From contig CP066689.1 in NCBI GenBank assembly GCA_016432445.1, positions 1,050,001 through 1,082,000 on the forward strand: 32,000 nt of DNA, read 5' to 3'. This document shows, in pieces, positions 5,316 to 21,538 of this stretch (the first letter of the stretch is position 1; the number at the start of each line of letters is the position of its first letter). This DNA comes from Candidatus Saccharimonadota bacterium. GTDB taxonomy: Bacteria > Patescibacteriota > Microgenomatia > UBA1406 > GWC2-37-13. The position numbers were made by a program, and so were the translations under genes. The notes below the pieces were generated by a model. It ran no database searches. It was given only the letters and a program-made list of their open reading frames with translations, and was not told the DNA's origin.

Positions 5316-5596
5316 TTTTCTCTTCTGTCTTCAAAGGAATTTCTTGGTTTAGGCGGTCTGGCTTCAGAAACGACTAACTTCCGGCCTTCATATTCTTGAC
5401 CGTTAAATTTATCAATAGCCGCTTTTGCTTCCTCCTCTGATGACATTTCAACGAATCCAAAACCTTTTGATCTACCACTGTCTCTATAGCGGATAACTGA
5501 TGCAGAAACAACATTACCAACCTGAGAAAAAAGATCTTTTAACTGATCATCATTAACCTCATATAAAAGATTACCAACATAAAGCTTAGCACTCAC
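5309..5596 (-). CDS. RRM-type RNA-binding protein
   Basis: RNP2 LYVGNL and RNP1 KGFGFVEM are present. It has a GTG start preceded by GGAGGTGG with a 7-nt spacer, the clearest Shine-Dalgarno in the window. Confidence 0.85.
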   Translation of the reverse strand: MSAKLYVGNLLYEVNDDQLKDLFSQVGNVVSASVIRYRDSGRSKGFGFVEMSSEEEAKAAIDKFNGQEYEGRKLVVSEARPPKPRNSFEDRRENI

Positions 5597-5695: not shown

Positions 5696-6736
5696 TTACC
5701 GACCAAGTCCCATCAATCTTTTAATTTCTTTAATCTTTTGGCTTGATTTCTCAAGGGAAAAATCCCGTCCTTCATTTAAGACTTTATTCAAATAACCTTC
5801 ATCTTTTTTTATTACTTGATACTTTTCCTGAATTTTTTTAAGAGATCCCACCACAACTTCGGCTAAATCGGATTTAAACTGACCATAGCCTATTCCTTGG
5901 TATTGTTTCTCAATTTCTTCAACCGGTTTTCCCGACAGACGTGAATAAATCACTAAAAGGTTTGAGATGGCAGGTTTATCTTCTTTAAAAACCACCTCAG
6001 AACCTGAGTCAGTCACAGCTTTCTTAATTTTTTCTCTTATCTCATCAGGAGTATTCAAAATATTAATTGTTCCTAAAGGATCTTTATCCGACTTACTCAT
6101 TTTGCTTAAAGGATTTTGCAGACTCATAATCCGCGCCGCATCCCGATCAACTCTGGTCTCAGGAAGTACAAAGATCTCACCAAACTGCTTATTAAACTTT
6201 TCAGCAATATCCCGGGTTAACTCTACATGCTGTCTTTGATCTTCTCCTACCGGCACTACATTAGTATCATAGAGAAGAATATCAGCAGCCATAAGCGCTG
6301 GATAGTTAAAAAGGCCGACAGGCCCTTCAAACAAAGCCCGGGCTTCAGCCAATGAAGAAAGATTATCAGCCTTTATAAATTTTTGTGCTTTTTCTTTAAA
6401 CTGGGTCATCCGAAAGAGCTGTCCCATATTTAAAAAACAATCAAAAATCCAGGCCAGATACGTATGATCTGGGTTTTCAGATTGAATAAAAAGTTTTGAT
6501 TTATTAGGATCAATTCCTCCTGCCAAATATAGAGCAGACAACTCAAGATTTTTTTCTCTTAATACCTTTGGATCCTGAAAAACAGTAATGGCATGAAGAT
6601 CAACCACACAAAATATTAAATCACTAAACTCTCCGCTTTCCTGAAGATTAACAGATTGACGAATCATCCCGATATAATTACCGACGTGAAGATCACCTGA
6701 TGGCTGAATACCGGAAAATATAGTTTTTTTTACCAT
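5696..6736 (-). CDS. trpS: tryptophanyl-tRNA synthetase
   Basis: IQPSGDLHVGNYIG (HIGH-type) and KMSKSD (KMSKS) are present. The ATG at 6736 lies 5 nt after the tyrS stop. The ORF-track start at 6754 is a TTG inside tyrS. Confidence 0.9.
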   Translation of the reverse strand: MVKKTIFSGIQPSGDLHVGNYIGMIRQSVNLQESGEFSDLIFCVVDLHAITVFQDPKVLREKNLELSALYLAGGIDPNKSKLFIQSENPDHTYLAWIFDCFLNMGQLFRMTQFKEKAQKFIKADNLSSLAEARALFEGPVGLFNYPALMAADILLYDTNVVPVGEDQRQHVELTRDIAEKFNKQFGEIFVLPETRVDRDAARIMSLQNPLSKMSKSDKDPLGTINILNTPDEIREKIKKAVTDSGSEVVFKEDKPAISNLLVIYSRLSGKPVEEIEKQYQGIGYGQFKSDLAEVVVGSLKKIQEKYQVIKKDEGYLNKVLNEGRDFSLEKSSQKIKEIKRLMGLGR

Positions 6737-6740
6737 AAGT

Positions 6741-7958
6741 TTAAACAATTTCAACTATTCCATAATCTTTTTTTCCCTTACGGATTAAAAAGTATTTATT
6801 GAATAAATTATTGCTAATTACTCCTTTTTGTTCAATTAATCTTCTTGCTTCATTTTTCGATTGCACCAATCCAAGCTGAATTAAAACCTCTTCTAACACC
6901 AAATCGTTTTGGGAAGATAAGGTTGTGTAAGGCACTGATTTTTTAATAAATTTTAAGTCTTTTTCTGTCAATCCTTCTCCTTTTCTTTCAAAAAGAATAC
7001 TAGCCACAGCTTTAGACTGATCGGCTAATTCCCGTCCGTGCACCATTTCGGTTAATTCGTACGCCAGTTCTTTTTGTATCAAACGTGTTTCTTTTTGCTT
7101 CTGCCATTCACCAATCAATTCTTCTATTTCTTCTTTCGATTTAAAAGAATAGTATTTCATTAGTACTGGAGCCAGCTCATCTTCAACATTGATAAAAAAT
7201 TGATAAAAAGCAAAAGGAGGAGTTTTTTCAGGATCAAGCCAAATAGCAGCTCCTTTTTCTGTCTTACCAAATTTTTTACCTGTTTTAGGATCAACAATTA
7301 AAGGATAAGATAAAACATGAGCCTCACGGCTTATTTTTTTTCTAATAAGTTCAACCCCTTGAATCATATTTCCCCATTGATCAGACCCCCCTATCTGCAC
7401 CTCACATTGATGATCCTCATAAAAACGTAAAAAATCATATGCTTGTAAAAGCTGATAAGAAAACTCTGCATATGATATTCCTTCCTGACGGGAAAGTCTT
7501 GTCTTTACAGATTCCATATCCATCATTGAGTTAGCTGAGATGTATTTACCGGTATCACGTAAAAAATCAATAAGAGATAATTTCTCCAGCCACTCGGCAT
7601 TATCTATTGTTTTAACTCTTTTACCGTCTATCTTAAAAAAATTTTCCACTTGCTTTGACAATTTTTCTTTATTGGCTGCCAATATGTCTTTGGAAACGAT
7701 TGGACGTTCGGCGTCTTTTCCTGACGGATCACCAATAGCGGCTGTACCCGTGGCCATAAGAACAATAATATTATGACCTGCTTCGTAAGCTCTTTTTAAA
7801 ACCAAATAACCTAAAAGATGTCCGAAATGAAGACTGTCGGCAGTAGCATCAACACCATAATAAATAGTTGCTCCTTTATTAAAAACATTTTCAATTCCAG
7901 GAGTTTTCTGGTAAATGAGTCCTCTCCATTCAAGATCGTTTAAAAAATTAATTTCCAT
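6741..7958 (-). CDS. tyrS: tyrosyl-tRNA synthetase
   Basis: YYGVDATADSLHFGHL (HIGH), KFGKT (KMSKS equivalent), and a C-terminal S4-like RNA-binding tail. TATAAT lies 8 nt upstream of the ATG. Confidence 0.9.
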   Translation of the reverse strand: MEINFLNDLEWRGLIYQKTPGIENVFNKGATIYYGVDATADSLHFGHLLGYLVLKRAYEAGHNIIVLMATGTAAIGDPSGKDAERPIVSKDILAANKEKLSKQVENFFKIDGKRVKTIDNAEWLEKLSLIDFLRDTGKYISANSMMDMESVKTRLSRQEGISYAEFSYQLLQAYDFLRFYEDHQCEVQIGGSDQWGNMIQGVELIRKKISREAHVLSYPLIVDPKTGKKFGKTEKGAAIWLDPEKTPPFAFYQFFINVEDELAPVLMKYYSFKSKEEIEELIGEWQKQKETRLIQKELAYELTEMVHGRELADQSKAVASILFERKGEGLTEKDLKFIKKSVPYTTLSSQNDLVLEEVLIQLGLVQSKNEARRLIEQKGVISNNLFNKYFLIRKGKKDYGIVEIV

Positions 7959-9185: not shown

Positions 9186-11150
9186 ATGAACTCGAAGATT
9201 AAAGACCTCTGCAAACTGCTTCGATATGATGTTATAACCTCAACCACTGCCGCCGGTTCTGGACACCCTACAACCTGTCTTTCCGCTATAGAACTCATGG
9301 GAACATTATTTTTTAAAGGCTTTTTCCATTTTGATCCTGACCATCATGAAAGTATTCTTAACGACCGTATTATTTTTTCTAAAGGCCATGCTGCTCCCCT
9401 ACTTTATGCGTTATACCATGCAGCTGGATTAATAAGCCAAGATGATATTTTAAGTTTGCGTAAATTTGACTCTGTTTTTGAAGGACATCCTACTCCGAGA
9501 TTTAAGTACGTTGATGTTTCCACTGGTTCTCTAGGTCAAGGATTGTCAATAGGCGTGGGAATGGCATTAGGAATAAAAACCAAAATCCAAATGTCAAATG
9601 TCAAAATTAAAAGAGAACCTAAGGTATGGGTATTGATAGGAGACTCAGAAATAGCTGAAGGACAGGTTTGGGAAGCTATGGAAATAGCCTCACATTACAA
9701 ACTTAACAATCTGGTTGCCATACTTGATGTTAACCGTTTAGGTCAAAGAGGAGAAACAATGCTTGGATGGGATCTTAAAACTTATGAAAAACGAGCTCAA
9801 GCTTTTGGCTGGGAAACAATTGTTATCAAAGACGGCCATGATATTGAGGAAATAAAAAACGCATATCATCATGTCGACGAACGCCCAACGACGAACGCAA
9901 AACCCACAATGATCATCGCAAAAACCATAAAAGGCAAAGGCGTTTCCTTTCTTGAAAACAAAGATAACTGGCACGGTAAACCAGTACCTAAGGATAGATT
10001 AGAGGAAGCTTTAAAAGAATTGAGTAAAGTTAACCTTAAGGTAAGAGGAACAGTAACCAAACCAAAATTAGTTAAGGGTTTAGAGTTAAGGGTTTTGGGT
10101 AAAACTCAAAACTCTCAACCCTCAACCATAAACTATAAACCTGGAGCAATGGTTGCCACCCGTGAAGCTTATGGCGATGCTCTTGTTACATTAGGAGAAA
10201 AAAATCCCAACTTAGTAGTACTTGACGCTGAAACCTCAAACTCAACCTACGCTGATAAATTTAAAAATAATTTTCCTGAAAGATACTTTGAGATGTATAT
10301 TGCCGAACAAAATATGATCTCAGTCGCTTTAGGATTTTCTAAATTAGGATTTATTCCTTTTATCTCCAGTTTTGCCGCTTTTTTAACCCGATCTTTTGAT
10401 CAAATACGTATGGCTCAATACTCAAACGGCAATGTAAAAATATGCGGATCACATGCTGGGGTATCAATTGGCTCAGATGGTCCTTCGCAAATGGCATTGG
10501 AAGATATATCAATGATGAGAAGCATACTAGAAAGCACTGTTTTTTACCCATCAGATGCTGTTTCCGCTTATAATCTGGTTTATCAAAGTATGAGTACATC
10601 TTCTCTTACTTACATCCGCACCACTCGGGAAAAAACGCCCATTTTATATAGCTCTCAAGAAAAGTTTACTGTTGGTGGATCAAAAATTTTAAAACAAAGC
10701 AAAAATGATGATGCGGTTATTTTTACTGCCGGAATCACAGTCCATGAATCTCTTAAAGCTTACGAGGAACTAAAAAAAGAAGGAATTAATGTTTGCGTTG
10801 TTGATCTTTACTCCATCAAACCAATTGATTCGTTAACCATCCACAATCTAGTAGGGACAGGTCGCGACCTGTCCCTACCTAAAATCAATAACGTCATTGT
10901 TGTTGAGGATCATTACCCATATGGTGGCCTCGGCGAAGCCGTAATGTCGCAGATCAAAGATCTAACATCGAAGATCTCCTTCACTCACCTGGCTGTCAAT
11001 AAAATCCCCCGTTCAGGCACACCCGAAGAACTTTTAGCCTACGAAAAAATTAATGCCGCTGCTATCGTTAAAATATGTAAGGGCGTATTGCAATACGCCC
11101 CTACCTCACTCAAAAAAACCGTAACGGCAAAGGAACAACTTACCGCTTAA
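9186..11150 (+). CDS. tkt: transketolase, N- and C-terminal halves fused
   Basis: The N half has GSGHPTTCLS, GDSEIAEGQVWEA and WHGKP. The C half has ATREAYGDAL, EQNMISVA and HAGVSIGSDGPSQ. It contains six repeat-derived in-frame segments (see repeats). Its 3' end overlaps the convergent ATPase by 11 nt. Confidence 0.9.
   Translation: MNSKIKDLCKLLRYDVITSTTAAGSGHPTTCLSAIELMGTLFFKGFFHFDPDHHESILNDRIIFSKGHAAPLLYALYHAAGLISQDDILSLRKFDSVFEGHPTPRFKYVDVSTGSLGQGLSIGVGMALGIKTKIQMSNVKIKREPKVWVLIGDSEIAEGQVWEAMEIASHYKLNNLVAILDVNRLGQRGETMLGWDLKTYEKRAQAFGWETIVIKDGHDIEEIKNAYHHVDERPTTNAKPTMIIAKTIKGKGVSFLENKDNWHGKPVPKDRLEEALKELSKVNLKVRGTVTKPKLVKGLELRVLGKTQNSQPSTINYKPGAMVATREAYGDALVTLGEKNPNLVVLDAETSNSTYADKFKNNFPERYFEMYIAEQNMISVALGFSKLGFIPFISSFAAFLTRSFDQIRMAQYSNGNVKICGSHAGVSIGSDGPSQMALEDISMMRSILESTVFYPSDAVSAYNLVYQSMSTSSLTYIRTTREKTPILYSSQEKFTVGGSKILKQSKNDDAVIFTAGITVHESLKAYEELKKEGINVCVVDLYSIKPIDSLTIHNLVGTGRDLSLPKINNVIVVEDHYPYGGLGEAVMSQIKDLTSKISFTHLAVNKIPRSGTPEELLAYEKINAAAIVKICKGVLQYAPTSLKKTVTAKEQLTA
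9581..9608 (+). repeat. HEP-A heptamer array, in frame in tkt
   Basis: CAAAATCCAAATGTCAAATGTCAAAATT encodes KIQMSNVKI. Confidence 0.9.
9875..9903 (+). repeat. HEP-F heptamer array (CGACGAA/CGCNNAA)n, in frame in tkt
   Basis: The units CGACGAA CGCCCAA CGACGAA CGCAAAA encode DERPTTNAK. Confidence 0.8.
10071..10140 (+). repeat. HEP-H inverted heptamer arrays (GTTNNGG)x4 / (NNNNAAC)x6, encoding the linker between the transketolase halves
   Basis: The units are GTTAAGG GTTTAGA GTTAAGG GTTTTGG GTAAAAC TCAAAAC TCTCAAC CCTCAAC CATAAAC TATAAAC. They are translated as VKGLELRVLGKTQNSQPSTINY. Confidence 0.8.
10851..10878. repeat. PAL28 perfect copy, in frame in tkt
   Basis: The same 28-mer, translated as VGTGRDLSL. 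Confidence 0.95.
10950..10978 (+). repeat. HEP-C degenerate array, in frame in tkt
   Basis: CAGATCAAAGATCTAACATCGAAGATCTC encodes QIKDLTSKI, to be compared with KIQDLRSKI in LeuRS. Confidence 0.7.
11077..11104. repeat. PAL28 variant GTAAGGGCGTATTGCAATACGCCCCTAC at the 3' end of tkt
   Basis: Same length and same GTA.GG/CC.TAC ends as the perfect copies. The core differs but is perfectly self-complementary (GGGCGTATTG/CAATACGCCC). Translated as KGVLQYAP. Confidence 0.8.
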
Positions 11151-13650
11151 TGATCTTTTTTATCAAACCTATTCCGGGTAGAACTAACATTGTCACTATA
11201 AGGAGTTCTAAAAATAATGGTGTAGTTATCATCTCAACTTTAAAAAGTTTAGATAAACTTGGTATATTCACAATCATAAACTGATTAACAATAGGAATTG
11301 CAAATGCTATCAAAAATGCTTTTGAAAGAAAGCTTTTAACATGTTTATTAATAGAACGGTGAGATAACCAAAGATCAACAAAAACAAAAGACTGAATCAT
11401 GGCCAGCACTGAAAAAGCAGCAGTTTTACCAACGTCTTCTCCGTTTGATTTAAATAAAAAATAAGAGACCATCACCAAAGATGTTGCTAAAAAAGCAACT
11501 AGAATAATATATCGTTTATCAAAATTATTAAAAAGACTCAATTTTTTTTCCGGAGGTTTATTCATTAAATGATCTTCACGGGGTGAAAATGCCAAAGCTA
11601 AAGCAGGGATTCCATCACTGATGAAATTTATATAAAGTATTTGGACAGCGCTAAAGAAAGCAGGCACACCCAAGATAAGTCCAGTCATAAGCGCTAAGGC
11701 TTCTGTAGCATTGGTTGATAATAAATATTTAATAGAGTTTTTAAGATTCTTTACAATATTCCTGCCTTCCTCAACCGCACTAATAATGGTTGCAAAATTA
11801 TCATCCATAATCACAATATCAGAAGTCTCACGAGCTACATCAGTACCTACCTTCCCCATAGATATTCCAACATCCGCCTGCTTTAATGCAATCGCATCAT
11901 TAACACCGTCTCCTGTTACAGCCACTATCTCTCCTAATTTTTGATACAAAGATACAATTCGGCTTTTATGAAGAGGTGTTGTGCGGGCAAATATTTTTAC
12001 TTTAGGCAGTTTTTCTAATAATTCCTCGTCCGTATAACTCTCTATTTGCTTTCCTGTTAAAATCAGATCGCCTTCTTTAATAATGTTCACGGCTACTCCA
12101 ACTGCCTCAGCTGTTTTTTCATTATCGCCGGTTATAATCACAACTTTAATACCGGCGCGATAGGCTTTTTCCACTGCTCCTTTTACCTCAGGTCTTGGAG
12201 GATCGTGGATGGCGACCATACCGATGAATATTTGATCTTCGATCTTAGATCTTAGATCTTGGTATGAAAACGCGATAACCCTGTAGCCTTTTTTCGTCCA
12301 ATGATCCAGTGTTTTCTCGACTTCATGTCTTCTTTCTTGGGTAAACTCCACCTCTTTTCCCGCGATCAAAATTTTTCCGCATTTCTCCAAAATAGCCTCC
12401 GGAGCTCCTTTAATAAACATTATTTCTTTATTATCTTTTTTTACCACCACACTCATTGTCTTGGTTAAAATATCAAATGAACCTTCTTTTATAAACTGCC
12501 ATTCTGTTCTTAATTCTTCAGGATCTATACCAAAATGCTCTCTGGCAAAAAGCAGTAAAGAACCTTCTGTTGGATCACCCAAAACTTCCCAGGAATTATG
12601 ATCATGAACATAAACTAAAGAAGCCGTGGAACATAAAATTCCATTAGTGATTAATTTTTTAAGCGAAGGATTATCATGCGGAATTGACTGATGATCTTCA
12701 AATATCTTTCCGTCGGTTAAAATTTCCTTTATTCTCATATCGTTACTAGTTAAGGTACCGGTTTTATCTGTCGCAATAAGAGTTATATTGCCTATAGCTT
12801 CAATTGCCTCAAGTCTTCTCACGACTGCCTTTTTCTTGGCCATCTCTTTTACTCCTAAAGCTAAAGTAATTGTCGTTACTGCCGGCAACCCTTCAGGTAC
12901 AATAGCTACTGCTAAAGATATCGCCAGTAAAAATGCAGGAAAGTAACCGGAGCCGTTAATAAACGATAATCCTAGAACTGCTATAGAAAAAATAATGCCG
13001 ACAACTCCGATTATTTTAAGCAAACTATTGAGCTTGCGCTGAAGAGGAGTAGAAGTTTTTTCAATTTTGGAAAGACTGTTGGCTATTTGTCCAAATCTGG
13101 TTTTCATTCCAGTTTGAGTTATCTGCGCTTGCGCCCGGCCTTTAAATATAACTGTCCCCATAAATATCTCATCACCTGCATATTTATATACAGGTATAGA
13201 CTCACCGGTTAAAGAAGCTTCATTAACCTCAAGATTAACTGCCTTAAAAACTTTAGCATCAGCCGGAATCTTCATACCTTCCTCAATGAGAATGATGTCT
13301 TTAGGCACTAAAAAACTGCTGTCAATCTCCATTTCTTTCCCATCTCTAATTACTCTTGATACTGTAACTGCCAATTTCTTTAAGGCACTTATTGCTTCCT
13401 CTGCTTTTCTTTCTTGATAAATCTTAAAGACAGCATTTAAAAAAATAATAGCTAAGATAAGTGAACCGTCAATGATTTCACTAATGAAAAATGATATGCC
13501 GGCTGCTCCAAGTAAAAGAAGAGTCAAAACATCCTTAAACTGTCTTAAAAAAATTAAGATCAGACTGTCTTTACGCGTCTCTTCAATAACATTAAGCCCA
13601 TGCGTCCTTAAAAGACGCTCCACTTCTGGTGATGAAAGACCCTTTAACAT
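11140..13650 (-). CDS. cation-transporting P-type ATPase (P2-type, Ca2+/Mg2+-like)
   Basis: Motifs present: DKTGTLT phosphorylation site, PEGLPA in TM4, TGDN, GDGVNDAIALK, and TGES in the actuator domain. I prefer the ATG at 13650 (MLKGLSSPE). The ORF-track start at 13659 is a TTG inside a repeat. Confidence 0.9.
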   Translation of the reverse strand: MLKGLSSPEVERLLRTHGLNVIEETRKDSLILIFLRQFKDVLTLLLLGAAGISFFISEIIDGSLILAIIFLNAVFKIYQERKAEEAISALKKLAVTVSRVIRDGKEMEIDSSFLVPKDIILIEEGMKIPADAKVFKAVNLEVNEASLTGESIPVYKYAGDEIFMGTVIFKGRAQAQITQTGMKTRFGQIANSLSKIEKTSTPLQRKLNSLLKIIGVVGIIFSIAVLGLSFINGSGYFPAFLLAISLAVAIVPEGLPAVTTITLALGVKEMAKKKAVVRRLEAIEAIGNITLIATDKTGTLTSNDMRIKEILTDGKIFEDHQSIPHDNPSLKKLITNGILCSTASLVYVHDHNSWEVLGDPTEGSLLLFAREHFGIDPEELRTEWQFIKEGSFDILTKTMSVVVKKDNKEIMFIKGAPEAILEKCGKILIAGKEVEFTQERRHEVEKTLDHWTKKGYRVIAFSYQDLRSKIEDQIFIGMVAIHDPPRPEVKGAVEKAYRAGIKVVIITGDNEKTAEAVGVAVNIIKEGDLILTGKQIESYTDEELLEKLPKVKIFARTTPLHKSRIVSLYQKLGEIVAVTGDGVNDAIALKQADVGISMGKVGTDVARETSDIVIMDDNFATIISAVEEGRNIVKNLKNSIKYLLSTNATEALALMTGLILGVPAFFSAVQILYINFISDGIPALALAFSPREDHLMNKPPEKKLSLFNNFDKRYIILVAFLATSLVMVSYFLFKSNGEDVGKTAAFSVLAMIQSFVFVDLWLSHRSINKHVKSFLSKAFLIAFAIPIVNQFMIVNIPSLSKLFKVEMITTPLFLELLIVTMLVLPGIGLIKKIIKR
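12233..12262 (-). repeat. HEP-C heptamer array, in frame in the P-type ATPase
   Basis: The plus strand reads TGATCTTCGATCTTAGATCTTAGATCTTGG. The sense strand encodes QDLRSKIEDQ. Confidence 0.9.
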
Positions 13651-13750
13651 AAAATTCAAATATCAAATGTCAAAAAAATAATATTCGTCATTTGATATTT
13701 GGAATTTGGATTTGATTTGACATTTGAAATTTGGATTTTGGATTTAATTG
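13651..13750. repeat. HEP-A inverted heptamer arrays between the ATPase start and the HEPN-like ORF end; contains a 50-nt unit at 13664-13713
   Basis: CAAATGTCAAAAAAATAATATTCGTCATTTGATATTTGGAATTTGGATTT matches 14272-14321 at 48/50 positions. Further ATTTGNN units follow. Confidence 0.9.
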
Positions 13751-14230
13751 AATCAGTGATTGGTGTGTCTTTTCCATTGTCTGTGTAATCTGGGTGATGA
13801 TTTTTTGTGATTCTTCAAAGCTAATGCTCTTAAGATTATGAGGAAAATAATGAAAAATTTGATTACGCCCGCCTTTCCAAGTCATCCAAATCTCCTCAGC
13901 CAATTCTTTTCCTGCATTATTGATTATTTTTTTATACAGTGATTTTTCTCCTAAACGTACCATCAAAAATGGCGAGAGCAGTTTACCTAAACGTAAGTGA
14001 TCGGAGATATAATCAAGATGAGAAATAAAACCAATATCTTTAAACAATGTTTTTAAGTAACCCTCATAAGCTTTTGCGTAAGGAAAAACTAAAAAAGAAT
14101 AATCTTTAAATTTATAAGGACAGCTGGAGATAACATTGTTGATGAGATAATCGCCTTCAAGAAGAAGATCTTTTTGATTTTGAGAAAGATAATCCCAAAA
14201 CTCATTCCTTACACTATTTTTCGTATCCAT
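13688..14230 (-). CDS. HEPN-like protein (RN-x3-H motif), no partner gene
   Basis: GGRNQIFHYF has the spacing of the DUF86/HepT-type RNxxxH catalytic motif, in a predicted all-helical ~180-aa protein. It has its own TTGACA-17-TATATA promoter. The last ~20 codons are read from heptamer repeats. The family call is tentative. Confidence 0.45.
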   Translation of the reverse strand: MDTKNSVRNEFWDYLSQNQKDLLLEGDYLINNVISSCPYKFKDYSFLVFPYAKAYEGYLKTLFKDIGFISHLDYISDHLRLGKLLSPFLMVRLGEKSLYKKIINNAGKELAEEIWMTWKGGRNQIFHYFPHNLKSISFEESQKIITQITQTMEKTHQSLIQLNPKSKFQMSNQIQIPNIK

Positions 14231-14236
14231 TGAAAC

Positions 14237-14265
14237 ATTATATACGAAAATTAAATCCAAATGTC
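14237..14265 (-). promoter_or_regulatory. promoter TTGACA-17-TATATAAT for the HEPN-like ORF, with the -35 supplied by a HEP-A heptamer
   Basis: The minus strand reads TTGACA-TTTGGATTTAATTTTCG-TATATAAT-GTTTCA-ATG. Confidence 0.5.
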
Positions 14266-14328
14266 AAAATCCAAATGTCAAAAAAATAATATTTGTCATT
14301 TGATATTTGAAATTTGGATTTTGGATTT
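14253..14328. repeat. HEP-A inverted heptamer arrays between the HEPN-like ORF start and the rplA stop; contains a 50-nt unit at 14272-14321
   Basis: This is a direct repeat of 13664-13713 with 2 mismatches. Its minus strand supplies the TTGACA of the HEPN-like promoter. Confidence 0.9.
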
Positions 14329-14332
14329 TACT

Positions 14333-15118
14333 TTATATTTGTTCAATATTTAACCTTAGAGAGGGGCTCATGGTTGTTTTGACGAAAGCTCCAAGAATAT
14401 GATTTCTGCCTACTGACTTTAAGAAAGCGCTAATATTTTTATCTAGCTCTTTTTCCTCAGATGATATCTTACCTATCATCTGGTGAATTAAAGGAAATTT
14501 AGGTTCTGTTTTCCAACGGGTTACACCTTTGGAAAATTTTTTCACCAATTCTTCAGGATTAGGTGAGATTGTGCCGGCTTTAGGATTGGGCATTAAGCCT
14601 TTCGGACCTAATACTTTAGCAAATTTGGCGAGCTTTGGCATGAAAGATGGATGGGTCACTAAAACATCAAAATTCATATTTCCTTTTTCCAGTTCTGACA
14701 AAAGATCATCGCTTACAACAGCTACTCTAACGCTTTTTCCGATTGAAAAAGGAAGCTCTGCCTCACCTCTTAAACCGGTTTTATCAACGTTTAAATGTAC
14801 CTCAACGGATTCATCAAACTTTGCATATTTGATTTTCTTCAGATTAGATATCGCTTCAGGAATAGAATATGTTTTTTTTGTATCAATGGCTTTTTTGGCC
14901 GTTGAGTATTTCTTTCCCCGCTGACGGACTTGAGTTTTAGCTTGCCTTTTTCCCGTTTTTTTTACTTTAACCTCGGTAGGTTTTGTCTCTTCCTTCTCTT
15001 GGCTAACTACAACTTTAGTGGAAGTAGCTTTTTTTTGTACAGATTTTTCTTTCTGTTCTTTTTTTTGTTTTTTTTCTTCTTCTTCTAAACCTAAAGTTCT
15101 AGTTCTGATTTTTCCCAT
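14333..15118 (-). CDS. rplA: 50S ribosomal protein L1 with ~60-aa Lys/Glu-rich N-terminal extension
   Basis: The L1 core is recognisable: KKYSTAKKAID...YSIPEAI, GKSVRVAVV, NFDVLVTHP, LGPKGLMPNPKAGT. I chose the ATG at 15118 because the sequence upstream of it is the same 69-nt block that precedes the rplK ATG. Confidence 0.9.
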   Translation of the reverse strand: MGKIRTRTLGLEEEEKKQKKEQKEKSVQKKATSTKVVVSQEKEETKPTEVKVKKTGKRQAKTQVRQRGKKYSTAKKAIDTKKTYSIPEAISNLKKIKYAKFDESVEVHLNVDKTGLRGEAELPFSIGKSVRVAVVSDDLLSELEKGNMNFDVLVTHPSFMPKLAKFAKVLGPKGLMPNPKAGTISPNPEELVKKFSKGVTRWKTEPKFPLIHQMIGKISSEEKELDKNISAFLKSVGRNHILGAFVKTTMSPSLRLNIEQI

Positions 15119-15119
15119 A

Positions 15120-15188
15120 TTTTTATTGAGATTCAAGATTCAGGATTCAAGAATTTATTCGTAAATCGTGAATCGTAAATCATGAATC
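15120..15188. repeat. HEP-D 69-nt block (GATTCAR)x3, spacer, (NTRAATC)x4, abutting the rplA start
   Basis: 68/69 identical to 15628-15696. It ends 1-2 nt from the rplA ATG (15118). Confidence 0.95.
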
Positions 15189-15198
15189 GTAACTTATA

Positions 15199-15624
15199 TT
15201 AATTTTCAACATCAATCCCCATTGATCTTGCGGTGCCGGCCACTATCTTCATAGCGCCGTCAACATCTTGCGTGTTTAGATCATTTATTTTTTCTTTAGC
15301 AATTTCCTCAACCTGAAATTTTGTTAGTTTTCCAACCTTCTCCGTGTTTGGCTTTCCTGAACCTTTTTGCAAACCGATTTTCTTCTTAATCATGGCTGCA
15401 ACTGGAGGAAGTTTGGTAATAAAAGTAAAGCTTCTGTCTTCATAAACAGTAATAACTGCAGGAATTATCTGGCCTTTAAGCTTGGCTGTGTAAGCATTAT
15501 ATTCTTTAATAAAATCCATGATCGGCACCCCATGTTGACCTAAAGCTGGTCCAACTGGAGGAGCTGGCGTTGCCTCCCCTGCCGGCAGATTAAGTTTTAA
15601 GATTGTTTTAACTTTTTTAGCCAT
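15199..15624 (-). CDS. rplK: 50S ribosomal protein L11
   Basis: [24 protein letters not shown] and the C-terminal GTARSMG are canonical L11 sequences. Confidence 0.95.
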
Positions 15625-15627
15625 ATA

Positions 15628-15696
15628 TTTTTATTGAGATTCAAGATTCAGGATTCAAGAATTTATTCGTAAATCGTGAATCATAAATCATGAATC
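15628..15696. repeat. HEP-D 69-nt block abutting the rplK start
   Basis: 68/69 identical to 15120-15188. It ends 3 nt from the rplK ATG (15624). Confidence 0.95.
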
Positions 15697-15701
15697 AAGA
15701 T

Positions 15702-16286
15702 TTATAACTTTGCTACTTGCAAAAAATCTAACTCTACAGGAGTTTCACGATCGAAAATCGAGACTAACACTTTTACCTTGCCTCGTCCTTCATCAATAGA
15801 TTCAATTGTGCCCAAGAAATCGGCAAACGGACCTTCGGTGATCTTCACTGCCTCGCCGACTGAGAATTTCGCTTTAAATTTAGGCTGTTCCTGCTGGACA
15901 AATCTCATAATGGCTTCTACTTCTTTTTCTGAGATAGGTGTTGGTTTAAGACCAGCACCGACAAAACCTGTCACACCCTCAGTAGTACGGACAACAAGCC
16001 ATGATTCATCATTAAGAATCATTTTTACTAAGACATAGCCGGGAAAGACTTTTTCAGTAGCTTTAGATTTTTTTCCTTTTTTAACAACCACTATCTCACG
16101 AGTAGGAATAATAATATCAAATATCTTATCTTCAACACTTAAGCTCTTAACTCTTTGTTCAAGAGCATGTTTAACACGGGCCTCGTAACCTGTCTGCACG
16201 TGAATAACATACCATTTGGCAGAATCCGAAGCTGAAGACGTTGTTTCAGACTGTTTCGACTGTTTTGTTTCTTCTGTCACTGTCAT
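15702..16286 (-). CDS. nusG: transcription termination/antitermination factor NusG
   Basis: NGN domain KWYVIHVQTGYE...PGYVLV and KOW motif FSVGEAVKITEGPFADFLGTI. Synteny is secE-nusG-rplK-rplA. Confidence 0.95.
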   Translation of the reverse strand: MTVTEETKQSKQSETTSSASDSAKWYVIHVQTGYEARVKHALEQRVKSLSVEDKIFDIIIPTREIVVVKKGKKSKATEKVFPGYVLVKMILNDESWLVVRTTEGVTGFVGAGLKPTPISEKEVEAIMRFVQQEQPKFKAKFSVGEAVKITEGPFADFLGTIESIDEGRGKVKVLVSIFDRETPVELDFLQVAKL

Positions 16287-16323
16287 AAGTTATTAAAAAA
16301 GATTTACACGGATAAAAAGCGGA

Positions 16324-16518
16324 TTACTTAGTAATCAAACTCAAAGCTTTCGCCAGTAAAATGTCTATTATACCTATATATAATCCAATTATCAAGGATA
16401 TTGCGATAACTATAATAGTCAATCTTATGGTCTCACCTCTTGAAGGCCAAGTTACTTTTTTAAGCTCATTTATTAAGTCAGAGGCAAAATTTGATCGCGA
16501 TTGTATTCTTTTATCCAT
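16324..16518 (-). CDS. secE: preprotein translocase subunit SecE
   Basis: ELKKVTWPSRGET followed by a single TM helix, positioned upstream of nusG. The ATG at 16518 lies 6 nt after TGTTATAAT (an extended -10). The longer ORF-track start runs into repeats. Confidence 0.8.
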   Translation of the reverse strand: MDKRIQSRSNFASDLINELKKVTWPSRGETIRLTIIVIAISLIIGLYIGIIDILLAKALSLITK

Positions 16519-16524
16519 CCAGTA

Positions 16525-16533
16525 ATTATAACA
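16525..16533 (-). promoter_or_regulatory. extended -10 TGTTATAAT, 6 nt upstream of the secE ATG
   Basis: The minus strand reads TGTTATAAT-TACTGG-ATG. There is no good -35, which is consistent with an extended -10 promoter. Confidence 0.45.
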
Positions 16534-16550
16534 AAAAAAACAAGAAATTA

Positions 16551-16615
16551 ATTGATTCACGATTTATGATTAATGATTCATGAATCGTGAATCTTGAATC
16601 ATTAATCAATGATCA
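16551..16615. repeat. HEP-D related array (ATGATTC/GTGAATC/TTGAATC units) in the secE / 16635 divergent spacer
   Basis: ATTGATTCACGATTTATGATTAATGATTCATGAATCGTGAATCTTGAATCATTAATCAATGATC is built from the same unit vocabulary as HEP-D. Confidence 0.75.
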
Positions 16616-16621
16616 ATAATA

Positions 16622-16627
16622 TATACT
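16622..16627 (+). promoter_or_regulatory. -10 box TATACT, 7 nt upstream of the ATG at 16635
   Basis: TATACT-AAATAAT-ATG. Confidence 0.35.
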
Positions 16628-16634
16628 AAATAAT

Positions 16635-17258
16635 ATGTATACAGAAATACTGCATTCAATCCTTATCACCGCTGCGCTGGCTCTCTCCTTTCTGATAAGC
16701 AAAACCTCTTTGGCAGTCTATGATTTACAAATAAGCGCCTTCCTTTTTATTGTCTTTTTTATAGGAAAAAAGTGGCTGGATAAAGGTCAGCATAAACTAA
16801 TAGAGTCGCTTGTTTTTGCTTTTATTATCAACATGATTGTCAGCACAACAGGAGCGGCTCAATCGCCTTATTTTTTCCTTTATTATTTTCTTTTGTTCTC
16901 ATTAAGTCTTTTTTTGGAACCCGTTATTGCCATTACAGCCACTATTGCTGTAATTTTCTTCTCTCTATTGTCTTTATCTCAGATACAAACTCTCGACCAG
17001 GTCTTGCCAATTTTATCGCTTGCCTTAATTACGCCATTTGCTCTTTTTTTGGGAGAAGAACATATCAAAAACCAAATTTCAAATGTCAAATTACAAAATT
17101 TGGAAAAAGACAGTTACTTTTTTCTTTCTTTAGTATTAAAAAATCACATCAATAATATTAACCAAGCGGCAGAAAATTTTTTAGGCGACCGCGAGCTTGA
17201 AGAAATCAAAAAAAATGTCAAAAGAATCAAGAAATTGATTGAAGAATATGAGAAATAG
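16635..17258 (+). CDS. polytopic membrane protein, function unknown
   Basis: About five hydrophobic helices followed by a charged C-terminal coil. A heptamer insertion encodes ISNVKLQ at the TM/coil boundary. TATACT lies 7 nt upstream of the ATG. Confidence 0.5.
   Translation: MYTEILHSILITAALALSFLISKTSLAVYDLQISAFLFIVFFIGKKWLDKGQHKLIESLVFAFIINMIVSTTGAAQSPYFFLYYFLLFSLSLFLEPVIAITATIAVIFFSLLSLSQIQTLDQVLPILSLALITPFALFLGEEHIKNQISNVKLQNLEKDSYFFLSLVLKNHINNINQAAENFLGDRELEEIKKNVKRIKKLIEEYEK
17072..17103 (+). repeat. HEP-A array, in frame in the membrane ORF 16635-17258
   Basis: CCAAATTTCAAATGTCAAATTACAAAATTTGG encodes QISNVKLQNL. Confidence 0.85.
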
Positions 17259-17266
17259 ATATAAAC

Positions 17267-17360
17267 TCAAATGTCAAATGTCAAATGTCAAATGTCAAAA
17301 CTTTAGATTTCTTTTAGCATTGGGAATACTTTTGATATTTGGAATTTGGATTTTGAAATT
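17267..17360. repeat. HEP-A hairpin-type element: (AAATGTC)x4, spacer, (ATTTGRA)n
   Basis: There are four perfect AAATGTC units at 17269-17296. The opposing arm TTTGATATTTGGAATTTGGATTTTGAAATT lies at 17331-17360. The whole element is translated as the signal peptide of the downstream ORF. Confidence 0.9.
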
Positions 17361-18033
17361 AAGCAAAGTGCATGCCGCCAATATGGAGTCGAGCCGATTT
17401 CGGATTCAAGGAGGAAATATCAACATTGGCGCCACTTCACCCTCATCTGCAAGCTACAATCTCTCAATGACTTTAGGTCAGACTGCAGCTGGTCAGTTTA
17501 GCCGCGACGGCTATATTGTTAAAGCCGGATTTCAGTACATTTACTCTATTATCCCTTTTAGATTTTCTATCTCGGATATCTCCATTGACCTAGGAACACT
17601 TGTCCCCAACACCCCTTCAACCGCAGCCACTACTCTTACAGTCTCATTTGGCAGTGCCGGCCAGTATCAAGTTACGGCAGTAGAACTGGGCACCTTAAAA
17701 ACCCTAAGCGATAATTCAATTGATGATACCGTTTGTAATGGAGGAGGATCAGCTTGCAGTGAATCAAGCTCCAATCTCTGGACATCAAGCTCGGCTTATG
17801 GTTTTGGCTATAATATGAGCGGTAATGATGTGCCGTCAGACTTTCTCAGCTCTGACTATTATCGCCCTTTTCCTGACAGTACTGTTGCGGAAAGTCCTGC
17901 TGTGGTCATGTCAAATGCTGATGTCGGAAGTAACCGCCAGTCAACCGTCACCTTTAAAACTAATATCTCGACCATACAGCCTGCCGGATCTTATCAGACT
18001 ATTATCAATTTTGTAGCCACACCATCATTTTAA
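17278..18033 (+). CDS. secreted beta-rich surface protein, paralog of the C-terminal domain of 22518-23987
   Basis: It has a signal-peptide-like N-terminus (MSNVKCQNFRFLLALGILLIFGIWILKLSKVHA). It shares ...C.G....C.ES.S..WT..S.YG.GY... and a terminal QPAGSY....F.AT.SF with the 489-aa paralog. The start is uncertain: 17239 TTG, 17248 ATG or 17278 ATG. Confidence 0.55.
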   Translation: MSNVKCQNFRFLLALGILLIFGIWILKLSKVHAANMESSRFRIQGGNINIGATSPSSASYNLSMTLGQTAAGQFSRDGYIVKAGFQYIYSIIPFRFSISDISIDLGTLVPNTPSTAATTLTVSFGSAGQYQVTAVELGTLKTLSDNSIDDTVCNGGGSACSESSSNLWTSSSAYGFGYNMSGNDVPSDFLSSDYYRPFPDSTVAESPAVVMSNADVGSNRQSTVTFKTNISTIQPAGSYQTIINFVATPSF

Positions 18034-18035
18034 TA

Positions 18036-19028
18036 ATGAAAAATATAATAATTATAATTGTTATAACGGTTATAGCGGTTATACAAGCGACTGAAGCGAG
18101 GGCACAACAGGTTTCTCTTTCTATCTCTCCTCCGCTTTTAGAGGTAGCTATAAAACCCGGAAAATCAATACTTATTGCTTATACATTAAGAAACTATGGC
18201 GATCCAACTATTCTTAAAGCCCGTATCCTTCCTTTTGAACCTTTAGGCAGTACCGGCAATATAAAGATAAAAAATGAACTTGAAGGACCAATTCAGTTTT
18301 TTTTAGATAATGCCGATTTTAATCTGGGTCAGCCGTTTTTTTTAAAAAGCGCTGATTCTCAACAGCTCCTTTTGAGAATAAAAGCAGCCGAAGGTACGCC
18401 TGAAGGAGATTACTATTACACACTTCTTAATGAGACTGAACCTTCAGCCGGACTGTCTGGAGTGAGCTTATCTCAGGCTAAAGCAACACTAGGCTCTAAT
18501 ATTTTAATTACCGTTACTGAATCAGGAAAAATTGACATTCAGGGTAAAATTTCCCTGTTTGATGTTATCTCGCGATACTCTTTTTCCTTTTTTGGACGTC
18601 AGCTAAAGTTATTTGACAGCTCCGATCTTATCCCGGTCACTATTCAAGTTGAAAACCGGGGTAAAAACTTTATTAAACCTGAAGGACAAATTGAGTTAAG
18701 AGGCAACTTCGGAGAAAAAGCCGAGTACTCTATTATTCCAAAAAATATTTTAAGCGAGTCTCAAAGGCTTCTTTCAGCTACGCCCTCAGCAGCTTTAGAC
18801 TGCGAAGATAAAAAAAATAATAAGCTTTGCAAAAGTCCTGTCTCTTTACTTATCTCCGGTTTTTTCATTGGCAGTTATAAACTTTCAACGACTGTAAGTT
18901 TTGGTGATGGTTCACCTAATCTTTATGCCTCAGCCTCATTTATTGCTCTACCTTTAAAACTCATTCTCGGAGTTTTGACCACTTTTATTCTCGGCTTTTT
19001 TCTCATTATTAAAATGAGAAAATCTTAA
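18036..19028 (+). CDS. signal-anchored Ig-like/chaperone-like protein (DUF916-like), C-terminal TM anchor
   Basis: It has a signal peptide ending IQATEARAQ, a beta-sandwich-like pattern (ISPPLLEVAIKPGKS..., EGDYYYTLL) and a C-terminal TM plus KMRKS. It is a paralog of 23994-25001. The DUF916 resemblance is from memory of the family pattern. Confidence 0.5.
   Translation: MKNIIIIIVITVIAVIQATEARAQQVSLSISPPLLEVAIKPGKSILIAYTLRNYGDPTILKARILPFEPLGSTGNIKIKNELEGPIQFFLDNADFNLGQPFFLKSADSQQLLLRIKAAEGTPEGDYYYTLLNETEPSAGLSGVSLSQAKATLGSNILITVTESGKIDIQGKISLFDVISRYSFSFFGRQLKLFDSSDLIPVTIQVENRGKNFIKPEGQIELRGNFGEKAEYSIIPKNILSESQRLLSATPSAALDCEDKKNNKLCKSPVSLLISGFFIGSYKLSTTVSFGDGSPNLYASASFIALPLKLILGVLTTFILGFFLIIKMRKS
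18047..18084 (+). repeat. NON-E 9-nt array encoding a signal-peptide core
   Basis: TTATAATTG TTATAACGG TTATAGCGG TTATACA is translated as IIIVITVIAVIQ. Confidence 0.8.
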
Positions 19029-19785: not shown

Positions 19786-19802
19786 CAATTATAACCGTTA
19801 TA
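19781..19802. repeat. NON-E 9-nt array abutting the comEC start
   Basis: TATAACAATTATAACCGTTATATG. The final unit overlaps the ATG at 19802. Confidence 0.7.
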
Positions 19803-20581
19803 TGCCTGACATAACTATCGTTACTTCTGTTATCAATAACTATATTCCAGAGCCCCAAGCCTCACTATTGAATGGAATTCTTTTTGGTGTGCCTTTATCC
19901 AAGTCCGGTAGGTTGTATGAACAACTTAAGATCTTAGGACTACTTCATATCATAGTTTTGTCCGGGTTAAACATCACTTTATTAGCCTCATTCGTGAGTT
20001 TTTTGACTGCCTTTTTTAGCAAACAGTTATCCTTATTGATAACAATACTAACTGTAATATTGTTCATTGCTTTCGTAGGTCCTCAAGCCCCAATTGTCAG
20101 AGCTGGTTTTATGGGAATATTAACGTTCGTAGCAATATTGTTAGGTAGACGAACAATAGCCATTTATTCTTTATTGATATCGATTTTATTTATTGCTGTT
20201 TTTTGGCCGGCATGGTTAAAAAGCATTTCTCTTTATTTGTCTTATGGCGCAACCTTGGGAATCATACTATTTGCCGGTTCAGAGTCTAAAACTAATTTTT
20301 TAATTCAGGATTTACGGATTACTCTTAGTGCTCAGCTTTTTACTGCACCTTTGATTTTAATATATTTTAAACAGTTTTCGCTGATTGCTCCTTTATCCAA
20401 CCTTTTTGTATCTTTTATCATCCCGCCTCTCATGATGTTTGGATTTGCAACGGTAATACTTGGAAAGATAAACTTTTACCTCGGGCTTCCTTTTGCCTAC
20501 ATCTGCTATGGCTTACTAACCTATATTGTCCTTGTAGGCGAGCTGTTATCAAAACTGCCTTATATCTTTTTTCAGTTTTAA
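19802..20581 (+). CDS. comEC: ComEC, membrane 'competence' domain only
   Basis: Polytopic membrane protein beginning EPQASLLNGILFGV, typical of the Competence-domain entry. It follows comEA directly. There is no N-terminal OB-fold (DUF4131) region. Confidence 0.75.
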   Translation: MPDITIVTSVINNYIPEPQASLLNGILFGVPLSKSGRLYEQLKILGLLHIIVLSGLNITLLASFVSFLTAFFSKQLSLLITILTVILFIAFVGPQAPIVRAGFMGILTFVAILLGRRTIAIYSLLISILFIAVFWPAWLKSISLYLSYGATLGIILFAGSESKTNFLIQDLRITLSAQLFTAPLILIYFKQFSLIAPLSNLFVSFIIPPLMMFGFATVILGKINFYLGLPFAYICYGLLTYIVLVGELLSKLPYIFFQF

Positions 20582-20585
20582 AGCT

Positions 20586-21521
20586 ATGGATAAACCTCCG
20601 GTTACTAAAAGAATTGTCCTTATAACCTTAGTCCTATCCCTTATTGTAATAACCGTCATCTTCATTTCAAATTTTTTTGACACGCGGACAAAAATTGTCT
20701 TTTGTGATGTGGGACAAGGAGACGGAGCCTATATCAGAGTAAAAAATAAGATTGATATTGTCATAGACGCCGGACCCGGCAAAAAGGTACTTAACTGCTT
20801 AGGCAAGCACATGCCTTTTTTTGACAAAGAGATTGAGATTGCCATAATAACCCATCCTCAAACTGACCATTATGGAGGTTTTTTGCCAATGCTTGAAAGA
20901 TACAAAATTAATACGTTCGTAATAGACTCATTTGATACTCCTAACTCGTCTTTCAAGGAATTATTGCAAAAAATAAAAGAAAAAAAATCTAGGATATCTG
21001 CTTTTTTTCAAAATGATGAGATCAACTTGGGTGAATCTAGGATAATTTTCCATTGGCCGCCGGCTACGAACGACGAACGACGAACGCAGAACGATCCCAA
21101 TAACTTGTCTTTAATCTTCACTTATGAAGAAAATGCCTTGCCTGCCGGTCTTCGACTCCGAGGTCGCTCAGACTCGAGGAGCAGGCAGGGTTTTAGAGTG
21201 TTGTTTACAGGAGATGCAACACCAAAGGTATTAAATAAACTGTTGAAACAACAAAACTTAAAATCTAATATTTTAAAAATTCCCCATCATGGCTCAAAGA
21301 ACGGGCTGACTAAAGAATTTTTGCAGTTAGCAGACCCCGAGCTGTCAGTGATAAGTGTTGGCAGAAAAAATGCTTATGGTCACCCTTCAAAAAACGTTAT
21401 AGACATGTTTAAAGCCCTGAAGAAAAAATATTTAAGAACAGATCAAGAAGGAGACATCGTTTTTAAAATCCAAAGTACAAATGTCAAATCATTTAGATTT
21501 TGGATTTCATTTGAAATTTGA
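20586..21521 (+). CDS. comEC: ComEC metallo-beta-lactamase domain, separate ORF with its own TM
   Basis: FCDVGQGDGAYI, ITHPQTDHYGG (HxHxDH-type), LFTGDA, KIPHHGSKNG and GHPS are present. It starts 4 nt after the stop of the preceding ORF. It contains two in-frame repeat insertions and a repeat-encoded tail. Confidence 0.8.
   Translation: MDKPPVTKRIVLITLVLSLIVITVIFISNFFDTRTKIVFCDVGQGDGAYIRVKNKIDIVIDAGPGKKVLNCLGKHMPFFDKEIEIAIITHPQTDHYGGFLPMLERYKINTFVIDSFDTPNSSFKELLQKIKEKKSRISAFFQNDEINLGESRIIFHWPPATNDERRTQNDPNNLSLIFTYEENALPAGLRLRGRSDSRSRQGFRVLFTGDATPKVLNKLLKQQNLKSNILKIPHHGSKNGLTKEFLQLADPELSVISVGRKNAYGHPSKNVIDMFKALKKKYLRTDQEGDIVFKIQSTNVKSFRFWISFEI
21064..21094 (+). repeat. HEP-F heptamer array, in frame in the comEC MBL ORF
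   Basis: The units CTACGAA CGACGAA CGACGAA CGCAGAA CGA encode ATNDERRTQND. Confidence 0.8.
21136..21190. repeat. GC-rich hairpin element with ~10-bp terminal inverted repeats, in frame in the comEC MBL ORF
   Basis: CCTTGCCTGC...GCAGGCAGGG flank an internal GACTCCGAGG/GACTCGAGGA duplication. It is translated as ALPAGLRLRGRSDSRSRQG and sits just before the conserved LFTGDA strand. Confidence 0.75.
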
Positions 21522-21538
21522 AATTTGACATTTGGATT
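21465..21538. repeat. HEP-A hairpin at the convergent junction comEC-MBL / PaaX-like
   Basis: CAAATGTCAAAT (21478-21489) pairs perfectly with ATTTGACATTTG (21523-21534). It supplies the last codons of the MBL ORF (QSTNVKSFRFWISFEI). Confidence 0.85.

Follow-up and report, generated by a model that had tools for sequence, protein, structure and literature searches.

Known HEPN systems and the ORF-X locus

The closest characterized relatives of the protein described in this work are RnlA of Escherichia coli K-12 and LsoA of pOSAK1, which carry N-terminal TBP-like domains and are accompanied by an RnlB antitoxin (PMC3710099). Four residues of RnlA, namely, R255, E258, R318, and H323, are essential (PMC8266594). 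Another point of reference is the HepT/DUF86-MNT modules, which pair an MNT nucleotidyltransferase with a HEPN protein that is small and all-helical and has an Rx4H motif. In this work, we analyzed a 32,000-nucleotide (nt) stretch from Candidatus Saccharimonadota bacterium (assembly GCA_016432445.1, contig CP066689.1, positions 1,050,001 to 1,082,000; hereafter the window), which contains a minus-strand gene (ORF-X; 13688-14230) for a 180-amino-acid (aa), single-domain HEPN protein of the RNase LS (RnlA/LsoA) type that is bracketed by 50-nt direct repeats. A previous sequence-only reading of this locus had proposed a solo gene of the HepT/DUF86 type that was inserted or captured as cargo between the repeats. 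Our results make it probable that ORF-X is instead an ancestral, single-copy, chromosomal gene of Roizmanbacteria/Microgenomates (Patescibacteria) for a minimal RNase LS-type HEPN protein, likely an endoribonuclease without an antitoxin, and that the repeats are copies of a generic heptamer hairpin.

Compared with RnlA and LsoA, ORF-X is homologous to the C-terminal HEPN/Dmd-binding domain, and its Rx4H motif and the (R/K)-x-x-E pair that precedes it align with those of the toxins. However, it consists of the HEPN domain alone and has neither the N-terminal TBP-like NTD/NRD nor the RNase H-fold domains. It also differs from these toxins in having a lysine (K) in place of R255, in lacking an RnlB gene, in not residing on a prophage or plasmid, in being vertically inherited, syntenic, and strongly conserved, and in belonging to a transcription unit that usually runs on into a membrane protein. 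With the HepT/DUF86-MNT modules, ORF-X has in common the small all-helical HEPN protein with Rx4H, but there is no DUF86 match and no MNT partner, and RNase LS is indicated instead by the surroundings of the motif (GRNQIFHYFPHN) and by the best fold matches. Eukaryotes have housekeeping or sensor HEPN RNases, namely, Las1, which acts in rRNA ITS2 processing, and Ire1/RNase L with its KEN domain (PMC3710099). These are precedents for conserved cellular HEPN RNases that are not toxins, and Ire1 is tethered to the membrane, but ORF-X shows no sequence-level kinship with them beyond the superfamily and the likeness is one of analogy, not of membership.

Evidence for an RNase LS-type HEPN protein

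The HEPN-like nature of ORF-X and its placement in the RNase LS (RnlA/LsoA) subtype rather than HepT/DUF86 are supported by profile, structure, and residue comparisons. The protein matched the Pfam models RnlA-toxin_DBD (PF19034; E = 1.7e-5, 25.6 bits with a cut-off of 27) and HEPN_RnaseLS (PF18869; E = 6.9e-4, 20.4 bits with a cut-off of 29). Both models were also matched by every aligned family member (26/26) at E <= 0.01, and the distant members P0205 and P0227 exceeded the PF19034 cut-off with 27.8 bits. The AlphaFold (AF2) model of ORF-X is all-helical (pLDDT 84.7, pTM 0.80), in agreement with the four-helix up-and-down core of the HEPN superfamily. Among solved structures, Foldseek matched the model best to LsoA (prob 0.99) and to RnlA (prob 0.87-0.92); 2hsb, a canonical HEPN protein, was matched too, with a TMt of 0.66 and an rmsd of 3.2. 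The best well-superposed viral match is named "RNaseLS-like protein" (prob 0.97, TMq 0.62). When the PDB was searched by sequence, the single sequence retrieved only LsoA (E = 0.46), and the family profile retrieved LsoA at E = 0.033. The HEPN assignment made in the sequence-only reading was supported by both the Pfam and the structural comparisons.

The putative active site can be followed residue by residue. The Rx4H motif R122-N-Q-I-F-H127 (codons at 13850-13867, minus strand) was read from the sequence and aligns with NRHGLFH of LsoA, and K53-A-Y-E56 (codons at 14063-14074, minus strand) is the counterpart of RnlA R255/E258 in the profile alignment to LsoA. In this alignment of the family profile, AKAYEG is paired with LRAIEG and GRNQIFH with ENRHGLFH, and via LsoA the residues K53, E56, R122, and H127 of ORF-X fall on the positions of R255, E258, R318, and H323 of RnlA. 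All four are invariant in 26 close relatives and in 11 distant relatives with 26-38% identity. The RNxxxH motif (GGRNQIFHYF) that had been noticed previously is this Rx4H motif, whereas its attribution to the HepT/DUF86 type did not hold; no Pfam match to DUF86/HepT was found at E <= 1, and LsoA and RnlA were the best matches. PADLOC and NCBIfam scans of ORF-X returned no match.

Conserved position between rplA and a P-type ATPase gene

For comparison, we used 80 loci taken from species-representative genomes that encode an ORF-X relative (approximately 290 such genomes). All of these loci come from metagenome-assembled genomes of Roizmanbacteria, Microgenomates, or Patescibacteria, and the neighbors in the window were mapped onto each. 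The homologs of ORF-X number at least 810, at about 58-73% identity and with 54 invariant columns. They align from the methionine at 14230, and the start codon is this ATG rather than the TTG at 14260; the stop is at 13688.

On the minus strand of the window, secE (16324-16560), nusG (15702-16286), rplK (15199-15624), and rplA (ribosomal protein L1; 14333-15136; Pfam Ribosomal_L1, E = 6e-25) precede ORF-X, and a P-type cation ATPase gene (11140-13659; Pfam E1-E2_ATPase, E = 1e-53) follows it. The likely true start of rplA is an ATG near 15118. A transketolase gene (tkt) lies beyond the ATPase gene on the opposite strand. The sequence-only reading was correct in placing the gene downstream of the L11/L1 cluster, between rplA and the ATPase gene. 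This order, from secE to tkt, is conserved across Roizmanbacteria-type genomes. An upstream rplA on the same strand was found in 59 of the 63 assessable loci (15 at no more than 150 nt, 26 at 151-1200 nt, and 18 farther away). The ATPase gene lies downstream in 57 of 72 loci, likewise in the orientation of ORF-X (49 within 200 nt), with the ORF-X stop often overlapping or abutting the ATPase start (-1 to -15 nt). ORF-X is kept in 15 loci without the ATPase gene and in four loci where it does not adjoin rplA, and one locus (L010) has an unrelated opposite-strand gene in the rplA/ORF-X gap. For ORF-X, identity to the window protein has a median of 64%, compared with 56% for L1 and 55% each for the ATPase and the transketolase; NusG (82%) and L11 (84%) in the same loci are both above ORF-X.

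In a metagenome sample that was anchored on the ATPase gene and is independent of ORF-X, ORF-X was found directly upstream in five of the six assessable loci. The sequence-only reading had suggested looking for empty sites, in which rplA is followed directly by the ATPase gene with a single repeat unit. None was seen in this sample, where the seven close ortholog loci give low power. Furthermore, no ORF-X relatives were found in IMG/VR viral contigs, PLSDB plasmids, or INPHARED (GenBank phages). Because of the conserved synteny, the five of six independent loci, and the lack of viral, plasmid, or phage relatives, we regard ORF-X as ancestral at this position.

Partners, promoter, and the wider family

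No RnlB-type antitoxin gene was found adjacent to ORF-X by Pfam annotation of the neighbors, PADLOC, or NCBIfam, and no MNT nucleotidyltransferase gene is adjacent either. With rplA and the P-type ATPase gene as neighbors, the previous statement that ORF-X has no adjacent partner stands for known antitoxins. Many relatives could not accommodate an antitoxin gene, with 2-90 nt of spacer upstream of ORF-X and an overlapping gene downstream. The "own consensus promoter" that had been ascribed to ORF-X proved weak. A promoter scanner found no minus-strand promoter upstream of the gene, and the 14 promoter-like sites in the region compare with 12.4 expected. By eye, TTGACA (14267-14262) and TATAAT (14242-14237) can be recognized with a 19-nt spacer, 6 nt before the ATG. 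This spacing is beyond the range of the scanner, and the -35 hexamer is part of a repeated heptamer. The promoter-like region is not conserved upstream of ORF-X among the relatives, and the promoter/terminator scan revealed no GC-rich terminators at the hairpins described below.

An exhaustive profile search for the wider family yielded only 204 clusters (50% identity) at E <= 1e-3. Among its distant members, the HEPN domain is fused to an Rce1-like/CPBP intramembrane protease (P0140 and P0143), inserted in an RNase HIII-like protein with the arrangement DUF3378, HEPN, and RNase HII (P0241 and P0254), or placed between an RnlA_toxin N-domain and a cold-shock domain (P0264), and some forms have N-terminal transmembrane helices (P0205 and P0216). 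The proteins P0241, P0254, and P0264 have the look of "two-headed" RNases, and DUF3378 is TBP-like.

Other Microgenomates have a sister subfamily, which was recovered by a second homolog search; NCBI gives its member P0340 the name "type II toxin-antitoxin system RnlA family toxin". On all five long contigs of this subfamily (L081-L085; e.g., L081 5001-6133), a gene for an Rce1-like/CPBP protein comes next, overlapping or within 50 nt. The conserved block of the sister clade consists of PBP1, PBP1, HEPN-like, CPBP, DUF5667, NrdR, and RNR genes. Because no Rce1-like/CPBP gene was found near ORF-X in the window or in the 80 Roizmanbacteria loci, this coupling is confined to the sister clades. 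In two clades, therefore, the family is syntenic and inherited vertically, and its coupling to integral membrane proteins is recurrent. In the literature, we found no description of the ORF-X family in Patescibacteria or of a HEPN-CPBP pairing.

Proposed function and alternative explanations

Given that there is no RnlB-like antitoxin, that conservation exceeds that of L1, and that the chromosomal position is kept, ORF-X is most likely a resident RNA-processing/decay enzyme or a tightly regulated (stress) RNase, rather than a selfish toxin. By extension from RnlA, the protein would dimerize through its HEPN domain, bringing two Rx4H motifs together, and would cleave RNA in a metal-independent manner. 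Its transcription unit appears to run on, in most cases, into an integral membrane protein, which is the P-type ATPase in Roizmanbacteria and the CPBP/Rce1-like protease in the sister clades, and the function of ORF-X may be linked to these co-transcribed proteins.

Several points weigh against this interpretation. The window protein is slightly below both Pfam gathering cut-offs. Every Foldseek E-value is above 0.1, with TM-scores to LsoA/RnlA of approximately 0.45-0.49, and model confidence is low at the motif (pLDDT 57 for the block of residues 121-130). The equivalent of RnlA R255 is a lysine rather than an arginine, although this change is conservative. The putative RNase activity is extrapolated from RnlA, and an unrestrained domain of the RNase LS type would be expected to be toxic. 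Lastly, the retention of ORF-X in 15 loci without the ATPase gene means that the linkage with the ATPase may be merely inherited synteny.

An alternative that we consider unlikely is that ORF-X is a domesticated RnlA-type toxin or abortive-infection effector. Instead of a classical small antitoxin, its inhibitor would be the co-transcribed membrane protein (the CPBP protease in most Microgenomates and the P-type ATPase here) or an unlinked factor, and membrane or phage stress would free the RNase. This explanation is consistent with the nature of RnlA and LsoA, the nearest characterized relatives, as anti-phage toxins (PMC8266594, PMC3710099), with the toxin name given to P0340, with the intact catalytic residues, and with the tight coupling or fusion to membrane proteins. 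On the other hand, no PADLOC defense-system model was matched, and a single-copy, syntenic, and vertically inherited gene that is conserved above L1 is unlike typical toxin-antitoxin or Abi genes. The persistence of ORF-X where the ATPase gene is missing, and the lack of an adjacent RnlB-like gene together with spacers too short for one in many relatives, also argue against it.

Quite improbable is a non-catalytic HEPN domain that binds RNA or protein and serves the neighboring membrane proteins as an adaptor or regulator, comparable in principle to non-catalytic domains such as that of MtlR. A harmless protein of this kind would need no antitoxin, and the lysine at the R255 position, the coupling or fusion to membrane proteins, and the N-terminal transmembrane helices of some relatives would fit such a role. 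However, the Rx4H residues R, N, and H, like the E that precedes them, do not vary even among relatives with 26-38% identity, whereas loss of this motif is typical of non-catalytic HEPN domains (PMC3710099). The fusions of other relatives to RNase HII or cold-shock domains are RNA-directed contexts.

Direct repeats and hairpins flanking ORF-X

The repeats that had suggested an insertion are real. The units at 13664-13713, in the ORF-X/ATPase spacer, and at 14272-14321, in the rplA/ORF-X spacer, were confirmed as direct repeats with 48/50 identical positions, and the similarity of the pair reaches 63 nt at 89%. Within the 32-kb window, the next-best non-self match of either unit is 66%, and the pair is far beyond chance. 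A single ORF lies between the repeats, as previously described, but it is not wholly inside the 558-bp segment, because its stop and last approximately eight codons are within the copy at 13664-13713. The last approximately 15 residues of ORF-X (KSKFQMSNQIQIPNIK) are encoded by repeat sequence, and several homologs likewise end in repeat-encoded "KVQMSNQIQNPN" tails.

Both 50-nt units are parts of larger imperfect hairpins that are built of 7-nt units (AAATGTC/GACATTT). Element A (13651-13749) has AAATGTC/GACATTT arms, the loop AAAATAATA, and an extra right-arm run; element B (14247-14334) is likewise built of heptamers and has an identical loop. As minus-strand RNA, they fold at -18.8 kcal/mol (A; z = -2.9 vs. 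shuffles) and -22.1 kcal/mol (B; z = -4.1 vs. shuffles). Rfam searches gave nothing credible in positions 13000-17500 (E-value mode) or in the whole window (gathering mode). The sole Rfam match, to mir-358 inside the hairpin, was rejected as chance (E = 0.86).

These two elements belong to a larger family. The motif AAATGTCAAA, with one mismatch allowed, occurs 50 times in the window compared with 8.5 expected, and the occurrences form approximately 10 clusters in 32 kb that are nearly all intergenic. Examples are the clusters at 17269-17345, 21464-21540, 25877-25975, and 26684-26800, of which the second and third are both between convergent genes. Runs of the AAATGTC heptamer are also found in frame inside the transketolase gene (9589-9605; "IQMSNVK") and at the N-terminus of the ORF at 17239-18033 (17269-17299; "KCQMSNVKCQ"). 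Hairpin folds have z values from -2.9 to -5.7 overall, and no transposase or RAYT gene was found within the window.

Repeat bracketing is not specific to ORF-X

A control is provided by the same gene cluster. Two copies of an 82-nt repeat, built of GATTCAN heptamers that are unrelated to the AAATGTC family, lie at 15117-15198 (after rplK and immediately before rplA) and at 15625-15706 (upstream of rplK). They match at 77 of 82 positions, bracket the essential gene rplK, and form hairpins with z of -5.5 and -5.7. These copies abut the start codons of rplA and rplK, and no Shine-Dalgarno sequence is visible there.

When the two flanks of a gene were aligned with each other, for each gene in every locus, strong bracketing direct repeats were found around nusG (2/48 loci), rplK (2/54), and ORF-X (2/77), and none around rplA (0/56) or the ATPase gene (0/52). 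Cases include nusG in L003 (102/104; 2919-3022 and 3613-3716) and L031 (63/80), rplK in L067 (76/85; 3742-3826 and 4251-4335), and ORF-X itself in L052 (100/116; 5816-5931 and 6564-6679), where the heptamer is a different one (ACAAATN). Bracketing affects only short genes (about 430-600 nt). Because nusG and rplK, which are essential and non-mobile, are bracketed as well, near-identical repeats around a short gene in Roizmanbacteria-type genomes are not the footprint of an insertion.

Tandem units of period 7 are widespread in the compared loci. In the 802 kb of the 80 loci, 101 period-7 clusters were found, compared with 13 of period 6 and three of period 8; 26 of the 80 loci have at least two period-7 clusters, and five more distant Microgenomates loci have none. 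At the ORF-X/ATPase spacer, the heptamer differs among genomes (CGAAATT in L011, TACGAAT in L044, and ACAAATN in L052), and AAATCCA/AAATGTC heptamers occur there in L003 and the window. The period-7 tandem units are therefore a property of the lineage (Roizmanbacteria), and the heptamer sequence is specific to the genome. We found no description of heptamer hairpins in Patescibacteria in the literature.

Similar elements have been described in other bacteria. The REP/BIME elements of Enterobacteria and Pseudomonas are multicopy imperfect intergenic palindromes that are species-specific and located in operon spacers or between convergent genes. The hairpins of the window resemble them as multiple dispersed intergenic imperfect palindromes, but are composed of tandem 7-nt units, are very AT-rich and 60-100 nt long, have near-identical adjacent copies, and are without a RAYT gene in the window. 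Cyanobacterial STRR heptamers are intergenic heptamer repeats. Intergenic TAACTGA heptamer repeats occur in Beggiatoaceae, Cyanobacteria, and Bacteroidetes (PMC4679880). Like the repeats of the window, TAACTGA and STRR repeats are tandem 7-nt units that concentrate between genes, in many cases just before a start codon, and ribosomal-protein operons are among their locations. In contrast, the window repeats have inverted arms that form long hairpins, vary in heptamer among genomes, and are found in Patescibacteria.

These patterns are best explained if the dynamic part of the ORF-X locus is its hairpins rather than the gene. Neighboring spacers would gain near-identical hairpin copies by local duplication or gene conversion, and such copies in adjacent spacers would incidentally bracket short genes. 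At the RNA level, the hairpins probably serve as stem-loops between cistrons, with roles in stability, processing, or attenuation; alternatively, they may be selfish REP-like elements.

Two further explanations of the repeats are very improbable. In the first, the flanking hairpins would be specific partners of ORF-X, either a type III-like RNA antitoxin or cleavage substrates that set ORF-X expression. Hairpins do occur immediately 5' and 3' of ORF-X, the upstream one overlaps the sole promoter-like hexamers, and in a second genome (L052), too, ORF-X is flanked by a long direct repeat. However, the same hairpin family is present beside unrelated genes at approximately 10 other sites in the window, 75 of the 77 relatives have no bracketing repeats and many are almost without spacers, and no Rfam family was matched. 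ToxI-type antitoxins are tandem arrays of approximately 36 nt upstream of ToxN-type toxins, and this pattern was not seen here.

In the second, ORF-X would be a solo HEPN toxin gene that a mobile element brought in, or that was picked up when two intergenic hairpins recombined, with the 50-nt repeats as its footprint. The proposal of the sequence-only reading has in its favor that the 48/50 repeats bracket exactly one gene, that the hairpins are repeated elements evidently spreading in this genome, and that some relatives have gained other genes on the rplA side or on the ATPase side of ORF-X, which indicates that these spacers accept insertions. It was not borne out; ORF-X occupies the same position across the clade and in the independently chosen loci, is conserved above L1, and lacks relatives in the viral, plasmid, and phage collections, and bracketing is as rare around nusG and rplK. 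In essence, the position is kept next to rplA (59/63) and the ATPase gene (57/72) in relatives that, apart from two of 77, have no repeat flanks.

Other features of the window

Outside the ORF-X locus, no tRNA or tmRNA gene was found in the window. The region at 28720-32000 is seemingly free of ORFs and richer in GC (41-49% vs. approximately 35%), and was considered as an RNA gene. This candidate was rejected, as the region is a single plus-strand ORF of more than 1000 aa that runs past the window end; positions 28700-32000 gave no Rfam match (E-value mode) and no phage match. The genes for TrpRS and TyrRS are adjacent and overlapping (5696-7958). Archaeal-type TyrRS/TrpRS have been reported in some bacteria of the candidate phyla radiation, including Roizmanbacteria (PMC5370408). 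The comEC gene is apparently split into two adjacent ORFs, one with the Competence domain (19802-20581) and one with the metallo-beta-lactamase domain (20586-21521).

Two other kinds of repeats were observed. Period-9 repeats (TTATAACNG-like) occur at or near the 5' ends of ORFs (5266-5322, 18027-18083, and 23994-24050), and the ORFs at 18036-19028 and 23994-25001, both with such repeats, look paralogous. A 30-nt perfect GC-rich palindrome (GTAGGGACAGGTCGCGACCTGTCCCTAC) is present at 3128-3157, 10850-10879, and 27238-27267, with a variant at 11076-11105. Its copies are within coding regions, namely, those of LeuRS, transketolase, and an integrase-like ORF. In transketolase, the palindrome corresponds to an in-frame insertion of approximately 8 aa (GTGRDLSLP) that is missing from four of five homolog alignments, and the variant lengthens the C-terminus of the same protein.

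Implications for Roizmanbacteria and the RNase LS family

ORF-X adds a variant that is new in both architecture and context to a known family, in the form of a minimal, antitoxin-less, and vertically inherited RnlA-type HEPN protein encoded between two lineage-typical hairpins. Roizmanbacteria have a lineage-wide system of period-7 hairpins, in which each genome has its own heptamer and neighboring copies are locally homogenized. For genome scanning, this calls for caution, as near-identical direct repeats around short genes in Roizmanbacteria-type genomes are a by-product of intergenic hairpin families.

A more far-reaching proposal, which we regard as doubtful, is that Microgenomates carry an undescribed, vertically inherited, and antitoxin-less RNase LS-type HEPN endoribonuclease that acts at the membrane and is co-translated with or fused to membrane proteins (the CPBP/Rce1-like protease in most clades and the P-type ATPase in Roizmanbacteria). 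If true, this enzyme could be an Ire1-like, membrane-coupled RNA-processing or quality-control enzyme in reduced genomes, and the heptamer hairpins between cistrons might be its processing sites.

With regard to the preferred reading of ORF-X as a resident gene, an RnlA-type HEPN protein with an intact active site has been kept syntenic and antitoxin-less in very small genomes and has been repeatedly coupled or fused to membrane proteins. Its conservation suggests a cellular RNase role for a family that is known only as anti-phage toxins.

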